Virus record (IMG/VR): IMGVR_UViG_2526164632_000010
From: a virus
Taxonomy: Duplodnaviria > Heunggongvirae > Uroviricota > Caudoviricetes
Length of the DNA: 9,277 nt
Strand: one strand, 5' to 3'
Shown: in pieces, positions 1 to 9,277 of the stretch
Numbering within the stretch: position 1 is the first letter of the stretch
Layout of the letters: every line of letters starts with the position of its first letter
Translations under genes and position numbers: made by a program
The notes under the pieces: model-generated
Seen by the model: the letters and a program-made list of their open reading frames with translations, nothing else
Told to the model about the DNA's origin: nothing
The model's database searches: none

Positions 1-306
1 AACGGGGGCAAAGAGGGGGTGCAAATTTTGCCGTTCCAGCAGATCACCGCAAAAGATGAGTTCATGAATGTTAAGGCGGCATCCCGTGATGATGTGCTGG
101 CTGCGCACCGTGTTCCGCCGCAACTGATGGGGGCGATGCCGGGCGAAAAAAGTGCGTTTGGTGATGTGGAGAAGGCCGCGCGGGTTTACGCAATTAACGA
201 GCTGATGCCCGTTATGGAGGCCATGAAGCACATCAATGACTGGCTTGGCGAAGAGGTGATCCGTTTTAACTCTTATGCTCTTCTTGATGAAAAAACAGCC
301 CCGTGA
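1..306 (+). CDS. Phage portal protein, C-terminal part (gene starts upstream of the window)
   Basis: Reading frame is open from base 1 to TGA at 304-306 (the listed ORF 19-306 is its GTG-initiated tail). Residues resemble the C-terminal region of P2/PBSX-type portal proteins by recall only. Convergent with the replication gene, as Q and A are in P2-like genomes. Followed immediately by a hairpin terminator. Confidence 0.5.
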   Translation, partial: NGGKEGVQILPFQQITAKDEFMNVKAASRDDVLAAHRVPPQLMGAMPGEKSAFGDVEKAARVYAINELMPVMEAMKHINDWLGEEVIRFNSYALLDEKTAP

Positions 307-322
307 TGGGGCTGTCCTTTTT
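295..322. terminator. Bidirectional intrinsic terminator between convergent genes
   Basis: Stem CAGCCCC (296-302) / GGGGCTG (308-314) with loop GTGAT containing the stop codon; flanked by an A-run upstream and a T-run downstream, so it is U-rich after the hairpin on both strands. Confidence 0.6.
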
Positions 323-845
323 ACCAGAGCTGAACCATTTTCTGGGTTCCGTCAGGCTTGAGATTATCAATTTCAGAGAAAACGTAATATTGAATGGCTT
401 CACAAACGGTGGTGTAGGGTGAATTACCTTCTTTAAGTGGCACGATATTATTATTAACGCGAACCTGTATTTCATCGTTATACATTGCGATCGAAAGAGG
501 AGTATGCACGAAGGCGACTTCGCCAGGTGTGTCGTCAACCACTGTCTCAATGCTGAAAATCAGTTTTCGCTCATCATTGCCGCCCCTTGCTTTGGGGGTA
601 GCGGCAGGGATCTGAGATAAAGGCATTCTGCGAAATCCTTCGGCTGCTTCCAGTCCGCATGAAACGTAATGCTGGCGATTACCGTCGCTATCTGTCCAGG
701 TCTGTGATGGCAGCTCCAGCGAGATTTCATAAGCATCAACAATGCCCTGGGCAAGGCGTACAAGCGGGGTCAGATCTTCATTGCGGCGAAAGCTCTCCTT
801 TACCTGCTCCCGTTTTTCTCTTAACTGCTTGTAATTAATGACCAT
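321..845 (-). CDS. Hypothetical protein, 174 aa (orphan cargo gene)
   Basis: ATG at 845..843 preceded by GGAGG with a 7-nt spacer. The listed 187-aa ORF starts at an upstream GTG without an RBS, so the shorter start is preferred. No family recognised; region looks AT-richer than the replication gene by eye. Its stop abuts the bidirectional terminator. Confidence 0.6.
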   Translation of the reverse strand: MVINYKQLREKREQVKESFRRNEDLTPLVRLAQGIVDAYEISLELPSQTWTDSDGNRQHYVSCGLEAAEGFRRMPLSQIPAATPKARGGNDERKLIFSIETVVDDTPGEVAFVHTPLSIAMYNDEIQVRVNNNIVPLKEGNSPYTTVCEAIQYYVFSEIDNLKPDGTQKMVQLW

Positions 846-875
846 AAGACAGCCTCCATTGATTTCTTTGCTCGT

Positions 876-904
876 ATTTTGCACTTACGAAGTATGGTCG
901 GCAA
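876..904 (-). promoter_or_regulatory. Predicted sigma70 promoter for the 174-aa gene
   Basis: On the minus strand: -35 TTGCCG (complement of 899-904), 17-nt spacer, -10 CAAAAT (complement of 876-881), about 25 nt upstream of the ATG. Sequence-only prediction. Confidence 0.3.
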
Positions 905-944
905 GGTGCCGTATCGCTGACGCGCTTCGCTTGTCTGCTGCTTC

Positions 945-969
945 GCCGGGGCATAAAAAATTTATGCCC
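945..969. repeat. Perfect inverted repeat, 11-bp arms with 3-nt centre (CGGGGCATAAA-AAA-TTTATGCCCCG)
   Basis: Read directly from the sequence. No U-tract follows on either strand, so it is not a classic terminator; candidate operator or RNA/DNA hairpin upstream of the 174-aa gene promoter. Confidence 0.7.
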
Positions 970-1257
970 CGACTCTCCAGCTCCTGTATCAATCAGATAA
1001 TTTCACGACGCCTTCCAGTTTATCGCCACCATCGACGGTCAGACTCTTACGCAATCCCACCACGTTGACTGTATGTTCTCGCTGCCTCAGTGCGATTTTG
1101 ACGGCCTTACCTTTCACCCCATCAAATCAAAAGCCCTCACGCCTTTTTCATGCTCAGCGTGAGAAATATGGCCATTCTGTTGTGTCTCTGCGACATCGTT
1201 CAGGGAATGCTATTTACCCCCTGAAACGCGGGCTGTTCCCCCGTCACCTGCGCGTAG

Positions 1258-1300
1258 AAAAAACGCGTTTTTTGTGCACGTACGGATCCTTGACGGATCC
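1258..1300. repeat. 16-bp perfect palindrome AAAAAACGCGTTTTTT followed by tandem ACGGATCC repeats
   Basis: Palindrome at 1258-1273; ACGGATCC at 1282-1289 and 1293-1300. Non-coding region. Confidence 0.6.
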
Positions 1301-1343
1301 AGCCGCCACGCGGGCCGGAAGTACAAAAAGTCGTTCAAAAAAA

Positions 1344-1373
1344 TTGTGCAAACTTGTGCACTATCGTGCAAAC
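1344..1373. repeat. Three (T/C)GTGCA motifs phased at 10-bp intervals
   Basis: TTGTGCAAAC (1344-1353), TTGTGCAC (1354-1361), TCGTGCAAAC (1364-1373). Helical-turn phasing suggests a protein-binding array; function unknown. Confidence 0.5.
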
Positions 1374-1396
1374 AAAAAAGCGCCTTATCGGCGCTT
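1371..1396 (-). terminator. Intrinsic terminator on the minus strand, just after the 89-aa ORF
   Basis: Minus-strand RNA would read AAGCGCC-GAUAA-GGCGCUU followed by UUUUGUUUG. Stem is 1378-1384/1390-1396. Only an A-rich tail follows on the plus strand. Confidence 0.6.
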
Positions 1397-1404
1397 CAAA
1401 AATA

Positions 1405-1674
1405 TCAATTGTTGCTGTGTATTAATCGCCAACCACGAACATATGCTTCATAAGCATCTCTGTGCCTTACAGTTCCAGCCTGGCTAAACGGAATGTTAGC
1501 TAAAACTAAATCATTCTGAGCCATAGCGCGTCCTTCAAGCGCATCTTTTATGCCTAGCTCAAAAGCACAGGCAGCGCATTTGTGCCGACCTTCTTGTCCT
1601 TGATATTCAGGGAGAGACAGAAATGTTGGGTTATAACGATGAGGGTTCTTGCAAATACCTGTTTTAGCCCGCAC
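1405..1674 (-). CDS. Hypothetical small protein, 89 aa (candidate effector of the antisense-regulated module)
   Basis: GTG start at 1674 with GAGGT about 9 nt upstream. An alternative internal start at ATG 1524 with AAGGA and a 6-nt spacer would give 39 aa. Terminator lies directly after the stop. No family recognised and no transmembrane segment. Confidence 0.4.
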   Translation of the reverse strand: MRAKTGICKNPHRYNPTFLSLPEYQGQEGRHKCAACAFELGIKDALEGRAMAQNDLVLANIPFSQAGTVRHRDAYEAYVRGWRLIHSNN

Positions 1675-1741
1675 TTTATTTACCTCATAGGAAAAATATG
1701 CGTGCCTTTACAGAGGTGCGTGTAAGCAATAAAATATACGA

Positions 1742-1838
1742 CGCACATTTTGATTTACTTCGGAAGGCACGCATATCAGGTTAAGTGAGTCCGACCGAGT
1801 TCTACGCCCCAATAGTTGCTGCTATTGGGGCGTTTTGC
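1742..1838 (+). ncRNA. Candidate antisense sRNA of about 95 nt, opposite the leader of the 89-aa gene
   Basis: Plus-strand promoter-like -35 TTTACA (1707-1712), 17-nt spacer, -10 TAAAAT (1730-1735). Ends at a strong terminator (1805-1832 stem plus TTTT). No plus-strand protein gene explains this terminator. Confidence 0.35.
1804..1838 (+). terminator. Intrinsic terminator on the plus strand
   Basis: Perfect 11-bp stem CGCCCCAATAG (1805-1815) / CTATTGGGGCG (1822-1832), loop TTGCTG, followed by TTTTGCAT. No U-tract on the minus strand. Confidence 0.65.
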
Positions 1839-1882
1839 ATGGACAATGCCGCGCAATTATCTTGTCGCTCACAATGCGAACG

Positions 1883-1910
1883 ATCTTACAAAAAGGCACA
1901 TTACTGTCAA
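1883..1910 (-). promoter_or_regulatory. Predicted sigma70 promoter driving the minus-strand leader and 89-aa ORF
   Basis: On the minus strand: consensus -35 TTGACA (complement of 1905-1910), 16-nt spacer, -10 TAAGAT (complement of 1883-1888). It sits in an AT-rich spacer containing several GATC sites. Confidence 0.4.
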
Positions 1911-2038
1911 GATAATTGATCGTTTTAATCGATAGATAATAGACAATCTATTTGTTTAACAGATCGATTATTGAAGTAAGTGCGCCAAATGGAATGATAC
2001 TGTTTCTATAAATGTGAGCATTTTTCGCGCAGATGCTT

Positions 2039-2350
2039 TTACCCAGGAAATAACGCCCGGATATTCCCAGCCATCTGGCTGGTTATCTTAGCCACTGGTG
2101 CAGACTGTGCTTCAAACTTTTTTGAGCTGATTTGTGTCACAGGTAACATCTCATCATCAGCCCATGCGGCCAGTCGGTAAGCCTCTGCCGGATTCGTCTT
2201 CAGAAGTGCCAGCCCGGCCAGAAAAGCCACGCGTTGGCCGCTTTTGCGGGCTTCTGGTGTAAGGCTGTCCAGCCAGGCGCATGCTTCTCCTTCGTTCTTG
2301 ACGGCAGCTGGCTTCAGATAGAAACTTATTCTTCTGGTTGGTGTCGTCAT
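2039..2350 (-). CDS. parR: ParR/StbB-like centromere-binding partition adaptor, 103 aa
   Basis: Immediately downstream of parM with a 4-nt gap. N-terminal RRISFYLKP...LDSLTPEARKSGQRVAFLAGLALLKTNP resembles plasmid R1 ParR (RRTIAFKLNP...LDSIPQGERSRLNRAALTAGLALYRQDP) as recalled. Confidence 0.8.
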   Translation of the reverse strand: MTTPTRRISFYLKPAAVKNEGEACAWLDSLTPEARKSGQRVAFLAGLALLKTNPAEAYRLAAWADDEMLPVTQISSKKFEAQSAPVAKITSQMAGNIRALFPG

Positions 2351-2354
2351 TGGT

Positions 2355-3314
2355 TTACTCCTTGTTCATTGCGTACAGCCCATTAACCAGAGCAAACTGT
2401 GGCACCCCGTCCGCGATGAAAGTCGCATTAACTCCGCAGGCTTCGCGGATAGCGGGTGCCACAATCTCCGCCCCTCCACCGACAACCATCACCCGCCCGT
2501 AACCGGAAAAACCCGCCAGCGCGCGGATCACTCGTTGTTTCAGTGTCTCCTCCTTTTCACGAATAACCGCCATCAGGCTGTTGTAATGCGCGTCATTGTG
2601 AATGTGCTGGCGCAGCCAGGCTTCATCGTGACGGTGCTCAATAATGGTATTGGCGATGTGGTGACTGGTACGCATACCGTTAGTGGCCATCACCGACAGC
2701 ACGGCATCAGCCATCAGGGAAACGCCTACGTTTGGATCGCAAAACACCTGGCTGATACCTGCCAGCTGCCCCTGAACCTTTGCCACATCCAGCGTGGTTC
2801 CGCCCAAATCCACAATCAGCAGGGATTCAAACGGACTCATGTCAGCCAGTGCCTTAAAGCCAGCCGGAATGGATTCAGGCATAACCCGTACGTTACGGAT
2901 AGTGAATGCTTCGCCGTTCTGGTACTCCACCGGGCGCATGACGTTCGCTTTTTTGCGGTTGATGTTGGCCATGTCCGGCTGTGCGTTTGTGTCGAAATAC
3001 TCGCTCAGTGGCAGGGTGACAACCACATCCACCTCCTGTGGCGTGATGCCTGATTTGACCAGCGCGTGATGAATGGCGATTACATTCACATCGCTGTACT
3101 GGTATTGCGTGTCAGTCGTCTGGACAAAACGATCGCTGACCGGATCAAAGCCATAGCGCACGCCATCAAGCATGTAGTTCGCGGGATGCGTGCCACCGAA
3201 CGGCGCAGACCATTCCGACTTGAAGCTGTTCGGGCTGATGGCGTTGCGGCGTTCGCCGTTCTCAGTCCATGCCAGCTTGATGTTGGTGGAGCCGTCGTCG
3301 ATACAAATTTTCAT
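2355..3314 (-). CDS. parM: ParM/StbA-like actin-type plasmid segregation ATPase, 319 aa
   Basis: ATG at 3314 with AAGGA 8 nt upstream. Motifs shared with R1 ParM as recalled: N-terminal IDDGSTNIKL, YSDVNVIAIHHAL, NRKKAN, VMPESIPAG, LIVDLGGTTLD, GVSL, GGGAE, LVNG. Confidence 0.93.
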   Translation of the reverse strand: MKICIDDGSTNIKLAWTENGERRNAISPNSFKSEWSAPFGGTHPANYMLDGVRYGFDPVSDRFVQTTDTQYQYSDVNVIAIHHALVKSGITPQEVDVVVTLPLSEYFDTNAQPDMANINRKKANVMRPVEYQNGEAFTIRNVRVMPESIPAGFKALADMSPFESLLIVDLGGTTLDVAKVQGQLAGISQVFCDPNVGVSLMADAVLSVMATNGMRTSHHIANTIIEHRHDEAWLRQHIHNDAHYNSLMAVIREKEETLKQRVIRALAGFSGYGRVMVVGGGAEIVAPAIREACGVNATFIADGVPQFALVNGLYAMNKE

Positions 3315-3344
3315 GTCGATTTTCCTTATGTTGGTTAATTAACC

Positions 3345-3457
3345 GTTTACGGGATTTTTAAATCCCGCTTTCGCCTGTTTTGTGCGCGCTTCATATATCG
3401 CGGCGCGTTTTTTGCTCATTTACGGGATTTGTGGATCCCGTTTCTGTCTGTTTTTTG
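3345..3457. repeat. Two imperfect 40-bp direct repeats, each with a CGGGAT...ATCCCG inverted repeat, upstream of parM
   Basis: Copy A at 3345-3384 and copy B at 3418-3457, about 30 of 40 positions identical, 73 bp apart. Copy A is intergenic; copy B overlaps the last codons of the replication gene. Position relative to parM matches a parC-like centromere/operator. Confidence 0.45.
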
Positions 3458-6198
3458 TTTCCACTGGTCAGGCCACCCTGCAGCAGGTCTGCTTTGCGGC
3501 TGGCGCGTTCAGTGGTTTCACTGATTCTCTGTGCGTGCTCTGCGTCGCGGATGGCGCGCAGCATGTCAGAAAGCACGGTAACGGGTGTTTTCATGGTGTT
3601 CTGATCCTGCTGAAGTGCGGATGCCAGGCGTGCGGCGGCTTCGGGGTCTGATGCCCCCAGCTGTGCCAGATAGCTGGCGACCGGGTTATGGCGGATCTCC
3701 GTGCTGCTTACGCCGTGATTACGGCTCAGGTGCTGCCAGAGCTGCGTGATTCGGCTGTCCGGGCGGGTATCCGGTTTGCGTACAATTTCATATCCCTGCG
3801 GTGCAATGATGCTGCCGTCAACGTACAGGCTGCCGCCCCGTAGCAGGTGCTGCATCTGCTGTTCACCGATATGCAGGCCGAGAGATTCGGCAGACTCCCG
3901 CCATTCTTTAGCGAGTAATTCGTGGTTATCAGGCAAAGGCCGCTGCTGTTTGCGGCTCTGTGTCCAGCTCTGCATTTCATCACTGCTGTTTTTTGCCTGT
4001 TTGTCACGAAGCGAACGCATCAGCGCCCGGCGTTCGTGCCGTTTCAGTGAGCGCATCCATTCGTTCACTTCAACGCCGTCAGGAAGCTGCGGCCACGGTG
4101 CTGGCCGTTCTTTCGACTGTTCTGTCCCGCTGTTGCCTGTTTCCTGTACACGGGGACAGTTATTGCCACGAGTCCAAGGGGCGGCAGGGCCGCCCTGAAG
4201 GTCAAAACCATTTTCGCGGGCGCTGTCTTCCGCTTCCGGTTTGCGTCTTACCAGCTTCCAGTTATCCGGATGCGTGCACACACGGGAGGATTCCCCGATG
4301 AGTGGTGACCAGATCCCGTAAATCTGTACGCTCTGTTCGCCGTAATCGTTCAGCTCATCGGCGAGGTCGTAGGCGGTGCGAATCAGGTAGTCTTTGCGTG
4401 GAACAAGTACGCCGCCCTGTTTCTCTATGTAGGTGGCAAAACATCCTGCATCAGCGGCAGCGAGTACCGCATCCATTGCGTCATCCTTCAGCCGTTGCGG
4501 GCCTTCCGGGTTGCGTGCCATCTGGCTGGCAAGGCGGCGGAGTTCACGCCACACCTGACGGGAGGGGATGCCAAAGAACTGGAACTGGCGGACCCGGTGA
4601 AGGCGCGCCCAGCCGATGGCGCGTTCCACGCTCTCGGCCATTGATTTTCCGGTTTCGTGGTCAACGCGTGGCTTGCCCGTTTTCTGGTCGATGCCATCCA
4701 CGGCGCGGCTGTCCAGGTTCTTTCCGATGTAGGTGGCGATGTAGCTGGTTGGTGTGCCTTTTGAGCCGTCTACGTACTCCGCCTTAAAACGCGGAGTTAT
4801 GTCATCGCCCAGCTCGTGGCGGTCTTCCTGAATGGCAATATCGCAGACGTGGGACACGATGGTTTCAATCTCGTCCGGATGTGCAAAGACCATCATATGC
4901 CAGTGCACGGTGCCGTCATGGTGAGGCTCCACCGTGCGGATGCCATACCAGCGCAGGCCGTCGCGGTTCAGTTTCTTGCGGACCGCCGCAAAAAACGTGT
5001 TAACCAGGTAATCGCTGGAGTCGCGCATGGTGGCCCCGTTCCATTTGGGATTCGGATGACCGTTCTCTGTTGTGGCGTGGTATTTTGACGGGCAGGTGAC
5101 AGTCAGAAACACCGCTTTGTCGCCACGGGCTTCGGCCAGAAGTTCCAGCCCCTTCATGGTGGCCATCATTTCTGCCTTACGGTGAACCGGGTTACTTACT
5201 CCCGCGTAATACACTGTCTCGAGATCAATCGTGAACCCGTCTTCGTTTTCCAGCATGAAACTTTTCAGGAAATCGCGTGTTTTCTCGCGCTGTGCGCGAA
5301 ACTCGCTTAACGCGTCCTGGCTCAGATAGGGTGATGTTTTTCTGGAAACCAGACAGGCGGCGCGGAGTTGTTCTTCTCTCCACTCGCAACGTAACAGCCA
5401 CAATTTGCGTTTCCACCATTCCGCACAGGTCAGGCGAAGGATTGCGCCCGGTAACAGTTCCGTATCCGGATCGCTCTTGTTCAGGGCTTCGTAATGTGGC
5501 GGCATGATGTGCAGGCGTAATGCGATACGGGCCAGCATCCGGTAAGCCTTCAACATTACATCCATGGTCAGCTCGCCATCTCTGGCACCAAAGCCATCGC
5601 AGAGTGTTTCGAAGGTGCTGCTGAACATCGCCGCCGTCATGGTGGCCAGCGTCTGTATCTGGTGCTTGTTGAGCTGCGGCAGGTAAAGCAAATCGTCCAG
5701 GCGTTCGCGCCCGGCAAGGGAGCGATAACCCGGTGTCAGCCAGCGCCCGTCAGTGCGATCCAGACGTTCGAATATTTTGCGCAGGGTCCCGCGCGCGTAG
5801 CGTTCAGCCTGCTGGTTCTTTTTACCTTTCTGGCGGTCAGATTCCTGTTTTTTGCGCAGGAAGGAGAGGTGGCGAATAAGCGGATCGCGCAGATAGGATG
5901 GCAGCAGGCGCAGCGAGGCCATGGCTTCATCCACCGCGCCGCGTACCTGCTTTCTGGCGTCTCCTGCCAGTGTGATGGTTTTGTCCTGTTTTTCCTGTGC
6001 GTCCAGGCTTTTATTAATCAGGTTGCCCAGCGGCGTGGCGGAGAACGCCGCATCAGCCATTTCCTGGCAGCGCTCGTTCTCTGCCCGGTAGGCATCCAGC
6101 CAGGAGGAAAGCGCGGATTCAGGAGCGGGGATCCCCGTTCCTTCACGCCCCACTGCGTGGCGCGGTTGCTGCCAGTCCCTGATGTACTCTGCCGTCAT
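3391..6198 (-). CDS. Rolling-circle replication initiator, P2 gpA family (HUH endonuclease), 935 aa
   Basis: HUH motif HWHMMVF near residue 431-437 and active-site-like tyrosine pair Y486/Y490 in SYIATYIGKNLD, the same Y-x3-Y spacing recalled for P2 A and phiX174 A. Long ORF; start is 6 nt after the stop of the preceding gene. Confidence 0.9.
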   Translation of the reverse strand: MTAEYIRDWQQPRHAVGREGTGIPAPESALSSWLDAYRAENERCQEMADAAFSATPLGNLINKSLDAQEKQDKTITLAGDARKQVRGAVDEAMASLRLLPSYLRDPLIRHLSFLRKKQESDRQKGKKNQQAERYARGTLRKIFERLDRTDGRWLTPGYRSLAGRERLDDLLYLPQLNKHQIQTLATMTAAMFSSTFETLCDGFGARDGELTMDVMLKAYRMLARIALRLHIMPPHYEALNKSDPDTELLPGAILRLTCAEWWKRKLWLLRCEWREEQLRAACLVSRKTSPYLSQDALSEFRAQREKTRDFLKSFMLENEDGFTIDLETVYYAGVSNPVHRKAEMMATMKGLELLAEARGDKAVFLTVTCPSKYHATTENGHPNPKWNGATMRDSSDYLVNTFFAAVRKKLNRDGLRWYGIRTVEPHHDGTVHWHMMVFAHPDEIETIVSHVCDIAIQEDRHELGDDITPRFKAEYVDGSKGTPTSYIATYIGKNLDSRAVDGIDQKTGKPRVDHETGKSMAESVERAIGWARLHRVRQFQFFGIPSRQVWRELRRLASQMARNPEGPQRLKDDAMDAVLAAADAGCFATYIEKQGGVLVPRKDYLIRTAYDLADELNDYGEQSVQIYGIWSPLIGESSRVCTHPDNWKLVRRKPEAEDSARENGFDLQGGPAAPWTRGNNCPRVQETGNSGTEQSKERPAPWPQLPDGVEVNEWMRSLKRHERRALMRSLRDKQAKNSSDEMQSWTQSRKQQRPLPDNHELLAKEWRESAESLGLHIGEQQMQHLLRGGSLYVDGSIIAPQGYEIVRKPDTRPDSRITQLWQHLSRNHGVSSTEIRHNPVASYLAQLGASDPEAAARLASALQQDQNTMKTPVTVLSDMLRAIRDAEHAQRISETTERASRKADLLQGGLTSGNKKQTETGSTNPVNEQKTRRDI

Positions 6199-6642: not shown

Positions 6643-6873
6643 TTAATGGAGTTTGTTTTGCTGCTGGATGAGCTGCTGAAGCTCGCGCAGATCATCCGCC
6701 AGATAACTGAAAACAGCGGATGAATAGAGGTTTGAAAGTTCGCAGCTACGCTCATGCAGCATATTGATGTGCATGATTTGCGCGACGCGTGATGCGCGGG
6801 AAAGTCTGCGGTTGATTTCAGTCTGGATGTGACGACGCTCCGCGATAGTGCGGTGCTGTTTGCGGTTTGCCAT
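6643..6873 (-). CDS. Hypothetical small basic protein, 76 aa (possible regulator)
   Basis: ATG at 6873 with AGAGG and a 7-nt spacer. Basic N-terminus and helical-looking sequence. An overlapping 205-aa ORF in another frame is low-complexity and was rejected. Confidence 0.55.
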   Translation of the reverse strand: MANRKQHRTIAERRHIQTEINRRLSRASRVAQIMHINMLHERSCELSNLYSSAVFSYLADDLRELQQLIQQQNKLH

Positions 6874-7050
6874 GGTGTGGCCTCTACGTGTGTAAGTTTT
6901 GAAAACTCACCATCCAGAGCTGCGAAACTGTGGGTGGCGAGACGTACGAGGTTCGCAGTACCGGCAAACGCAGAACCCGGCCCGACCGAAGTCGGCCCCG
7001 TACGCCCCACCATAATTCTGATGCGAAAAAGACGTGGCGATACAGTACGC

Positions 7051-7073
7051 ACAAAAAAACCGCTGGCGCGGTT
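7051..7073 (-). terminator. Candidate intrinsic terminator or attenuator inside the early operon (minus strand)
   Basis: Minus-strand RNA would read AACCGC-GCCA-GCGGUU followed by UUUUUGU. Located about 120 nt downstream of the 99-aa gene and upstream of the 76-aa gene. Confidence 0.45.
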
Positions 7074-7195
7074 GTGCGCTACGTTTGTCAGCGGGCTGCG
7101 AAACCCGGCACCCGTTTTATGAGGTGCAGCGGAAATGTAACCTGACTGATTGCGGCATGGCAAGCGGTTTTTTTGTGTGTGCATGTTCTGGTTTC

Positions 7196-8664: not shown

Positions 8665-9277
8665 TGGATTTGCCCCTATATTTCCAGACATCTGTTATCA
8701 CTTAACCCATTACAAGCCCGCTGCCGCAGATATTCCCGTGGCGAGCGATAACCCAGCGCACTATGCGGATGCCATTCGTTATAATGCTCGAACGCCTCTG
8801 CAAGGTTCTTTGCTGCCGTTAACCCGTCTGGTTTGGGCATGATACTGATGTAGTCACGCTTTATCGTTTTCACGAAGCTCTCTGCTATTCCGTTACTCTC
8901 CGGACTCCGCACCGCCGTGTTCTTCGGTTCAAGTCCCAACATCCGGGCGAACTGGCGTGTTTCATTAGCCCGGTAGCATGAACCATTATCCGTCAGCCAC
9001 TCCACTGGAGACGACGGAAGATCGTTGCCGAAGCGGCGTTCCACCGCTCCCAGCATGACGTCCTGTACTGTTTCACTGTTGAAGCCGCCGGTAGTCACCG
9101 CCCAGTGCAGTGCCTCACGATCACAGCAGTCCAGCGCGAACGTGACACGCAGTCTCTCTCCGTTATCACAGCAGAACTCGAACCCGTCAGAGCACCATCG
9201 CTGATTGCTTTCTTTCACGGCCACTCTGCCTGTATGTGCCCGTTTCGATGGCGGTACAGCAGGTTTTCGCTCAAGCA
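8665..9277 (-). mobile_element. IS2 (IS3 family), right-end 613 bp; the element continues beyond the window
   Basis: Terminal sequence TGGATTTGCCCCTATATTTCCAGACATCTGTTATCACTTAACCC starting at 8665 matches the IS2 right inverted repeat as recalled. Contains the 3' part of insD. Confidence 0.9.
8676..9277 (-). CDS. insD: IS2 transposase OrfB (InsD), C-terminal part; 5' end outside the window
   Basis: C-terminal sequence ...[41 protein letters not shown] matches IS2 InsD by recall. Frame stays open from 9224 to the window edge. Confidence 0.9.

Follow-up and report, generated by a model that had tools for sequence, protein, structure and literature searches.

We analysed a 9,277-nt stretch of tailed-phage DNA (IMG/VR record IMGVR_UViG_2526164632_000010, hereafter the window) for the genes and DNA sites of parMR, a plasmid-type partition cassette encoded on its minus strand. 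The original prediction had placed an intact parM-parR pair within a P2-like prophage, beside the replication gene. This placement is correct, as the predicted interval coincides exactly with two minus-strand open reading frames (ORFs). The replication gene A ends 76 nt upstream of parM, and parR starts 4 nt past the parM stop codon. The plus-strand ORFs that overlap parM or parR (2535-3053, 2794-3069, 3066-3338 and 2234-2386) have no Pfam match and are taken as antisense artefacts.

Table 1 Features of the window, with the partition cassette and its upstream sites listed first
Feature	Position (nt)	Strand	Evidence and remarks
parM (stbA), 319 residues	2355-3314	-	PF06406, PF21523, R1 ParM structures
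parR (stbB), 103 residues	2039-2350	-	PF10784, phrog_2515
Proximal repeat unit	3346-3384		Palindrome CGGGATTTTTAAATCCCG at 3350-3367; -70 to -32 from the parM ATG; candidate ParR site or operator
Distal repeat unit	3419-3457		Palindrome CGGGATTTGTGGATCCCG at 3423-3440; inside gene A at its 3' end; putative second ParR site
AT-rich palindrome GGTTAATTAACC	3333-3344		Between the proximal unit and the parM ribosome-binding site; conserved TTAAT-AA box
Gene A, P2-type replication initiator/endonuclease	3391-6198	-	PF05840, E=8e-129
Variable cargo interval, parR to cos/portal end	307-2038		Poorly characterised ORFs; outside the par module
Portal gene 3' end, PBSX/P2-Q type	19-306	+	Pfam/NCBIfam scans, TIGR01540
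Run of small early genes	gene A to ~8660		
IS2 copy	~8665 to window end (9277)		NF006918, E=6e-131

The window derives from a P88-like (Xuanwuvirus, Peduoviridae) P2-like prophage. Megablast against deposited phages aligns 79-83% of it at 94-95% identity to P88 and its relatives, including the genus Xuanwuvirus, Citrobacter phage phiSM, vB_EcoM-569R5, PhiR44_2, 520873, 503458, P884B11 and Chuche. P88 genes run in the order int, C, cox, early genes, A, parM, parR, a few small genes and portal, and the window shows the synteny, the portal (TIGR01540) and the gpA (PF05840) of this group. The cassette of P88 (NC_026014 gp17/gp18) is the same one and likewise sits between gene A and the portal end. 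The window ParM is 98.7% identical to its P88 counterpart and the window ParR 83%; the window differs from P88 in its parR allele, in its downstream cargo and in having the insertion sequence IS2 in the early region.

ParM matches both StbA_N (PF06406, E=3.3e-82, profile positions 1-157 of 158) and the C-terminal domain PF21523 (E=1.6e-68) over their full length, and it matches the crystal structures of R1 ParM (1mwk and others) across residues 2-316 (E=8.5e-93). The two proteins are 47% identical over their full length, and their alignment shows that the phosphate-binding and adenosine motifs DDGSTNIKL, PESIPAG, DLGGTTLD and GGGAE are unchanged. By these matches, ParM supplies the actin-fold ATPase that a type II (ParMRC, R1-type) system needs. 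The ratio of nonsynonymous to synonymous divergence (dN/dS) among Escherichia coli alleles is 0.00-0.15 at a synonymous divergence (dS) of 0.02-0.14; parM is under strong purifying selection. Truncated ParM clusters (P0006, P0010 and P0017) do exist in the protein collection and the window prophage carries the IS2 insertion, as might be expected if the cassette were a non-functional hitch-hiker, a decaying plasmid fragment carried passively. This explanation was already disfavoured and we find it very hard to credit, given the low dN/dS, the intact state of all ParM motifs, full-length clusters (1308 and 4287 members) that far outnumber the truncated ones, and a position that is conserved across prophages with backbones only 30-55% identical.

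ParR is encoded by a small gene directly downstream of parM, belongs to the ribbon-helix-helix family Plasmid_stab_B (Pfam PF10784, E=9.8e-24, residues 6-71) as the adaptor of a type II system should, and matches a 'partition protein' family of PHROGs (phrog_2515, E=6e-59). A search of the PDB returned no sequence match for ParR, and a single-sequence AlphaFold model (predicted local distance difference test score, pLDDT, of 44) was discarded as unusable. All E. coli alleles compared begin with the same 14 residues (MTTPTRRISFYLKP), and a C-terminal N-x3-(L/F)FP motif is present in all prophage ParRs. The same tail ends the plasmid ParRs of pETEC_35 and Citrobacter freundii IncFII, despite an overall identity of 23-52%, and the N-terminal strand region also aligns with the plasmid proteins, which are 140-143 residues long compared with 103 in the prophage.

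Three ParR alleles from E. coli P88-like prophages, when compared, are ~52% identical to each other and keep a terminal N-I-x2-(L/F)FP. Beside these divergent alleles, the ParMs agree at ~98% of residues, and columns of the upstream DNA alignment average 98% identity. We also located the point at which parR diverges, using 40 evenly spaced records out of 1304 that match: the alignment runs through all of parR in 20 records, starts from query position 167 in 3 and from position 258 in 16. Position 258 corresponds to about codon 18 of parR, and the divergent part covers ~2039-2296 (codons ~18-103). Because 16 of the sampled records align only from about this codon, a recombination (mosaic) boundary lies inside parR, just past the presumed DNA-reading strand.

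The original prediction further claimed centromere-like repeats, which holds only in part. Two significant palindromic 39-nt units lie upstream of parM; with Tandem Repeats Finder and repeat scans, a short-iteron array was found neither upstream of parM nor downstream of parR. The units are direct repeats, 79% identical and 73 bp apart from start to start, and both hold a perfect CGGGAT-N6-ATCCCG palindrome. No perfect match to this palindrome arises in 200 shuffles of the window, and a complete P88-like genome has the motif only at the two homologous sites, besides one 2-mismatch match at chance level. The distal unit falls within the last codons of gene A, with the gene A stop codon between the units. 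The 73-bp spacing is about seven helical turns, which would put the palindromes on one face of the DNA.

To compare upstream regions, we aligned the 160 nt 5' of parM in three groups, E. coli, Plesiomonas and Hafnia. All three have in common just the GGG...CCC cores of both units and the TTAAT-AA box near -25, and the spacing of the units is kept at 72-73 bp. Hafnia has an extra ORF of 167 residues between gpA and parM, and the distal unit lies in the 3' end of that ORF, indicating that the repeat units move together with parMR rather than with gene A. Serratia and Enterobacter ParRs carry the N-terminal strand NRKISFYLKP where the others have TRRISFYLKP, and their upstream layout also differs, consisting of a long inverted repeat (GGGAAC..ATAGAAAAAT against ATTTTTCTAT..) and a GCCGTTTAAACGGC-type palindrome. 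Such co-variation of the ParR strand with the upstream layout is circumstantial, and is the pattern that co-evolving adaptor-centromere pairs would be expected to leave in sequence. The palindromes do not differ between the ParR allele classes.

A simple scan for consensus signals finds no sigma-70-like promoter and no terminator on the minus strand from A to parM, and inspection by hand of the AT-rich box reveals no convincing -10/-35 pair. The AT-rich palindrome might serve as a weak -10 region. The nearest minus-strand promoter-like site (1910-1883) is downstream of parR and directed at a cargo ORF. The distal unit scores as terminator-like on the plus strand, and no U-tract follows the palindrome hairpins on the coding strand. 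Since parMR lies on the same strand as A and neither a terminator nor a strong promoter is detected between them, parMR is probably co-transcribed with gene A and expressed with the early/replication operon. The supplements of an enterohaemorrhagic E. coli ciprofloxacin transcriptome/proteome study and of an O157 proteome study contain no usable entry for these genes.

We then asked how common the cassette is by searching 5426 complete E. coli genomes with a 1422-bp segment containing parR, parM and the repeats. The A-parM-parR block is present in 1303 genomes (24%), among them UTI89, O104:H4 2011C-3493 and O157:H7 strains, with up to 3 copies per genome; the copies are always beside a 'replication endonuclease'. 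At >=80% coverage, P88-type gene A is found in 1321 genomes and parMR in 1278 (~97%), indicating that parMR is a near-universal core block of the P88-like lineage and not a variable moron. P88 and every one of the 14 P88-like phage records have the cassette too. Across 50,697 phage records, StbA-type ParM occurs solely in these 14 and in the phage-plasmid D6; P2/186-type phages thus lack it, as the original prediction had supposed.

The rarity that the original prediction implied is not borne out by this distribution or by existing annotation. RefSeq names the products 'plasmid segregation protein ParM', 'partition protein' and 'plasmid partitioning/stability family protein', PHROGs holds 'partition protein' families for both genes, and the annotation of phage D6 reads 'similar to phage P88 StbA protein'. 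The Citrobacter phiSM paper counts the cassette as cargo (PMC6456863). The genes go unmentioned in the P88 paper (PMC5285337), and literature searches brought up no functional work on parMR in P2-like phages. A homology search had been proposed to see whether related P2-like genomes carry parMR at this locus, with a common and described arrangement counting against the idea, and such an arrangement is largely what we find. The cassette is already known as an object, being common, conserved and annotated.

Of the 1451 E. coli copies, 1449 are in prophages on the chromosome and 2 are on plasmids, a distribution at odds with low-copy extrachromosomal residence. The element also departs from phage-plasmids of the P1, D6 and N15 type, since it is chromosomal in nearly all genomes and carries a tyrosine integrase, C and cox. 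There are nevertheless records that would suit a facultative plasmid-prophage, in which P88-like phages would use parMR to survive over many generations as a low-copy episome (in hosts without attB, for instance), a genuine alternative to integration. A complete P88-like genome with int, C, cox and parMR has been deposited as a circular 34,461-bp 'plasmid', pZ1323PEC0009-2 (NZ_CP148288.1), the Plesiomonas homologue comes from a contig of 32,167 bp (WEKF01000002.1), about the length of one phage genome, whose end adjoins int, and the closest non-P2-like phage ParM comes from D6, a plasmid prophage. However, the origin of the pZ1323PEC0009-2 record lies within ~18 nt of the break point of integrated copies, so it fits an excised circle or an assembly-graph break at the attachment site (att) better than a stable plasmid, and it is the only phage-sized circular record among six 'plasmid' records with a phage-type ParM. 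The Plesiomonas contig could represent an excised or episomal form, or else reflect a break in the assembly at att. No record in the complete E. coli genomes has an uninterrupted attP junction, a result that says little about episomes because any match spanning the origin of a circular record is split in two. We take the two contigs as leads and not as evidence of a plasmid lifestyle. P2 gene A belongs to a repressible early operon, so replication under repression is not expected. A facultative episome is unlikely in our judgement, as is long-term plasmid maintenance as the job of parMR; because almost all copies are chromosomal and integrase, C and cox are present, the genomic data favour a transient over a stable extrachromosomal role.

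A search of 72,556 plasmids gives ParM matches with a bimodal distribution of identity: six records reach 95-99%, and at least 4994 stay under 60% (best ~53%). A scan of genome contigs with ParM returned three near-identical loci only; divergent relatives were reached through a protein search, which found intermediate ParMs at 54-63% identity in Plesiomonas, Hafnia, Serratia and Enterobacter. The contigs of these intermediates read gpA, parM, parR and short cargo, followed by the portal and terminase of P2-like prophages. Backbone identity to P88 in the four hosts is 30-47% for the portal, 35-43% for the large terminase and 29-55% for gpA, alongside 54-63% for ParM and 39-42% for ParR. Matches at <=50% identity come from an integrative and conjugative element (ICE) in Dickeya, an integrated plasmid-like region in Mangrovibacter and a plasmid in Cronobacter. 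Prophage ParMs cluster in neighbour-joining trees, with a bootstrap of 100% for each of two subclades and of 49% for the two joined. Since distant backbones share the position, the ParM subclades are separate and dN/dS is low, the link between parMR and the A-to-cos position in P2-like phages is either ancient or the product of repeated exchange among these phages; it is kept by selection and does not reflect recent plasmid capture. We do not claim monophyly of all prophage ParMs, given the 49% bootstrap and the placement of P0023, whose context is unknown, near the Serratia group. One of the three near-identical loci lies on a 226-kb contig labelled 'Vagococcus sp.' (Firmicutes; NZ_JBQPOM010000071.1); its ParM and that of the E. 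coli prophages are 97% identical, and the contig is most likely Enterobacterales contamination.

The reading that we favour, and consider moderately probable, is that parMR is a functional R1-type (type II) partition module, core to P88-like and related P2-like phages, that acts on transient phage circles. Our confidence is high that the module is genuine and functional, and moderate for the specific role in segregation. The cassette would be expressed with the early/replication operon once infection or induction has left the genome as a free circle, and ParR dimers would bind the two palindromic units upstream of parM. The ParR C-terminal tail, to judge from its conservation, would capture ParM-ATP filaments, and these would push sister circular phage genomes apart or position them. 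Periods of use could be before integration during the establishment of lysogeny, after excision, and during replication itself. P2 replicates from an origin inside gene A and yields monomeric circles, a plasmid-like substrate, so a plasmid-type machine with a putative centromere beside the origin makes mechanistic sense. The original interpretation is partly supported: the intact pair with repeats beside gene A and the lack of such genes in P2/186-type phages stand, the implied rarity does not, and both suggested roles, extrachromosomal maintenance and recruitment for another purpose, are speculative. As a sequence feature the cassette is unremarkable.

Known systems share some of these features. 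The R1/IncF ParMRC system (StbA/StbB/parC) has the same Pfam families, the same parM-parR order, repeats upstream of parM and the 47% ParM identity given above. In contrast, the P88-type cassette is in an integrating phage and nearly always chromosomal, it has two 39-nt palindromic units and not 10-11-bp iteron arrays, no promoter is recognisable within its repeats, and its ParMs fall in prophage-specific subclades. The best functional analogy is SrpMRC of SXT/R391 ICEs, shown to keep the excised circle stable during its transient existence, with expression confined to the activation (excision/transfer) programme (PMC4489591). Both are ParM-type type II loci conserved in normally integrated elements; however, SrpMRC is in an ICE and not a phage, SrpM is distant from R1 ParM, SrpR has no recognisable ParR domain, and the locus is linked to int and oriT, whereas P88-type parMR is linked to the gene for a rolling-circle initiator. 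An integrated prophage with an actin-like protein and an adaptor is also known from Corynebacterium glutamicum CGP3 (AlpAC/alpS; PMC4446434, PMC5539076). There AlpA binds upstream of alpAC, and AlpAC connects actin-like filaments with circular phage DNA. Induction of the genes is early, and the phage replicates efficiently only with both AlpA and AlpC (PMC4446434). AlpAC belongs to another actin-like family and a Gram-positive host, while the P88-type proteins are close R1-type homologues known from sequence. The phage-plasmid D6 is the only other deposited phage with a StbA-type ParM (StbA/StbB, 48% identity), but it is a P1-like plasmid prophage, where partition is expected, and its upstream repeats are of TCTCAAAT type.

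Several observations weigh against the segregation of transient circles. The candidate centromere consists of two units only, compared with the arrays of 10-11-bp T-rich iterons in related plasmid parC regions (in pETEC_35, T-rich 10-11-bp repeats form two clusters), and the two palindromic units may serve as an operator only, or ParR may not bind them. As RNA, the palindromes form hairpins (z=-3.3 against shuffles); such a fold is expected for palindromes, and a role in the mRNA is conceivable. Co-transcription of A and parMR is deduced from the lack of consensus signals in a simple scan, no expression or experimental study of P88-like parMR was found in the literature, and the short lytic cycle leaves little obvious need for segregation. 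The prophage copy in the window may moreover be defective or not expressed, because IS2 interrupts the early region upstream. This IS2 copy, whose OrfB C-terminus (8676-9224, minus strand) is 99.8% identical to IS2 of other records, breaks the early region just upstream of a DUF4754 gene and parts gene A and parMR from the cox-side early promoter.

The small number of units, the missing iteron array and the RNA fold would all agree with a real ParM and ParR whose palindromes serve as an autoregulation operator or as RNA-processing or stabilising hairpins between A and parM, with the centromere elsewhere or absent and ParM possibly not pushing DNA. The terminator-like score of the distal unit and the different upstream layout of the Serratia and Enterobacter homologues point the same way. 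We nevertheless regard this explanation as improbable, since the motif has no other copy in the whole phage genome, the site upstream of parM is the canonical position of parC, the cores and their spacing are kept across genera while the surrounding sequence is not, and the hairpins lack a U-tract on the coding strand.

If transient circles are segregated, the lesson of SrpMRC would extend from ICEs to tailed phages, and integrating elements would turn out to equip their short extrachromosomal phases with partition. A minimal two-site centromere would also be on offer for studies of ParMRC. A bolder version, which we put forward tentatively and with some doubt, is that P88-group phages segregate unintegrated or excised circles through a minimal two-palindrome centromere beside the replication gene, and thereby measurably raise lysogenisation or retention or allow a low-copy carrier state. 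In that case a quarter of E. coli strains would host a prophage with a conditional plasmid phase. The cassette is found in about one quarter of complete E. coli genomes and is strongly selected, with no assigned role in an integrating phage; P88 and phiSM are inducible and form plaques, which makes simple experiments possible.

Matches to relatives break between parR and portal, an interval that we take to be the known non-essential cargo position of P2 (tin/old). As the cassette adjoins this variable interval, parMR could instead act in the lysogen against others, either through partition incompatibility or exclusion of related phages and plasmids, or as anti-phage defence cargo of the P2 A-to-cos hotspot. 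The occurrence of up to 3 copies per genome is compatible with this idea, and the divergence of the ParR alleles beside nearly identical ParMs and upstream DNA could reflect avoidance of cross-talk. We give the idea little weight: parMR is core to the lineage and not variable cargo, its own promoter was not detected, plasmid ParMs are <=53% identical, making cross-reaction unlikely, and the palindromes are the same across ParR allele classes. An anti-phage defence system was rejected as a candidate, since PADLOC has no match for ParM, ParR or the neighbouring ORFs and parMR accompanies ~97% of P88-type A genes.

The cargo interval itself contains ORFs 321-884 (phrog_5091) and 1405-1674 (phrog_3941), both on the minus strand, which match only PHROGs of unknown function and have no Pfam or PADLOC match. 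No ORF is supported in the ~500 nt at 885-1400, and A-rich 10-13-bp tandem repeats occupy 1325-1372. Two convergent promoter-like sites, at 1707-1735 (plus strand, 10/12) and 1910-1883 (minus strand, 10/12), have between them a perfect hairpin with a 12-bp stem (1804-1815/1822-1833), after which the plus strand reads TTTT, and a 13-nt perfect inverted repeat is found at 1696-1708/1764-1776. The 1696-1910 region could encode a plus-strand transcript of ~100 nt, antisense to the 5' leader of the 1405-1674 ORF. The slot just past parR holds a HicA/HicB toxin-antitoxin pair in Serratia (L016 7450-8084) and a gene for a KAP-family NTPase in Enterobacter (L017 7411-8757), which fits a hotspot for accessory or defence genes.

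Rfam matches mark a further feature of the early region, with a C4 antisense RNA (80 bits) at 6930-7017 and the Hfq-binding small RNA isrK (70 bits) at 7053-7127, both on the minus strand. These sit directly upstream of a 'derepression protein' ORF (6643-6873, minus strand), and together they look like a P1/P7-style RNA-controlled antirepressor module within a P2-like early region.

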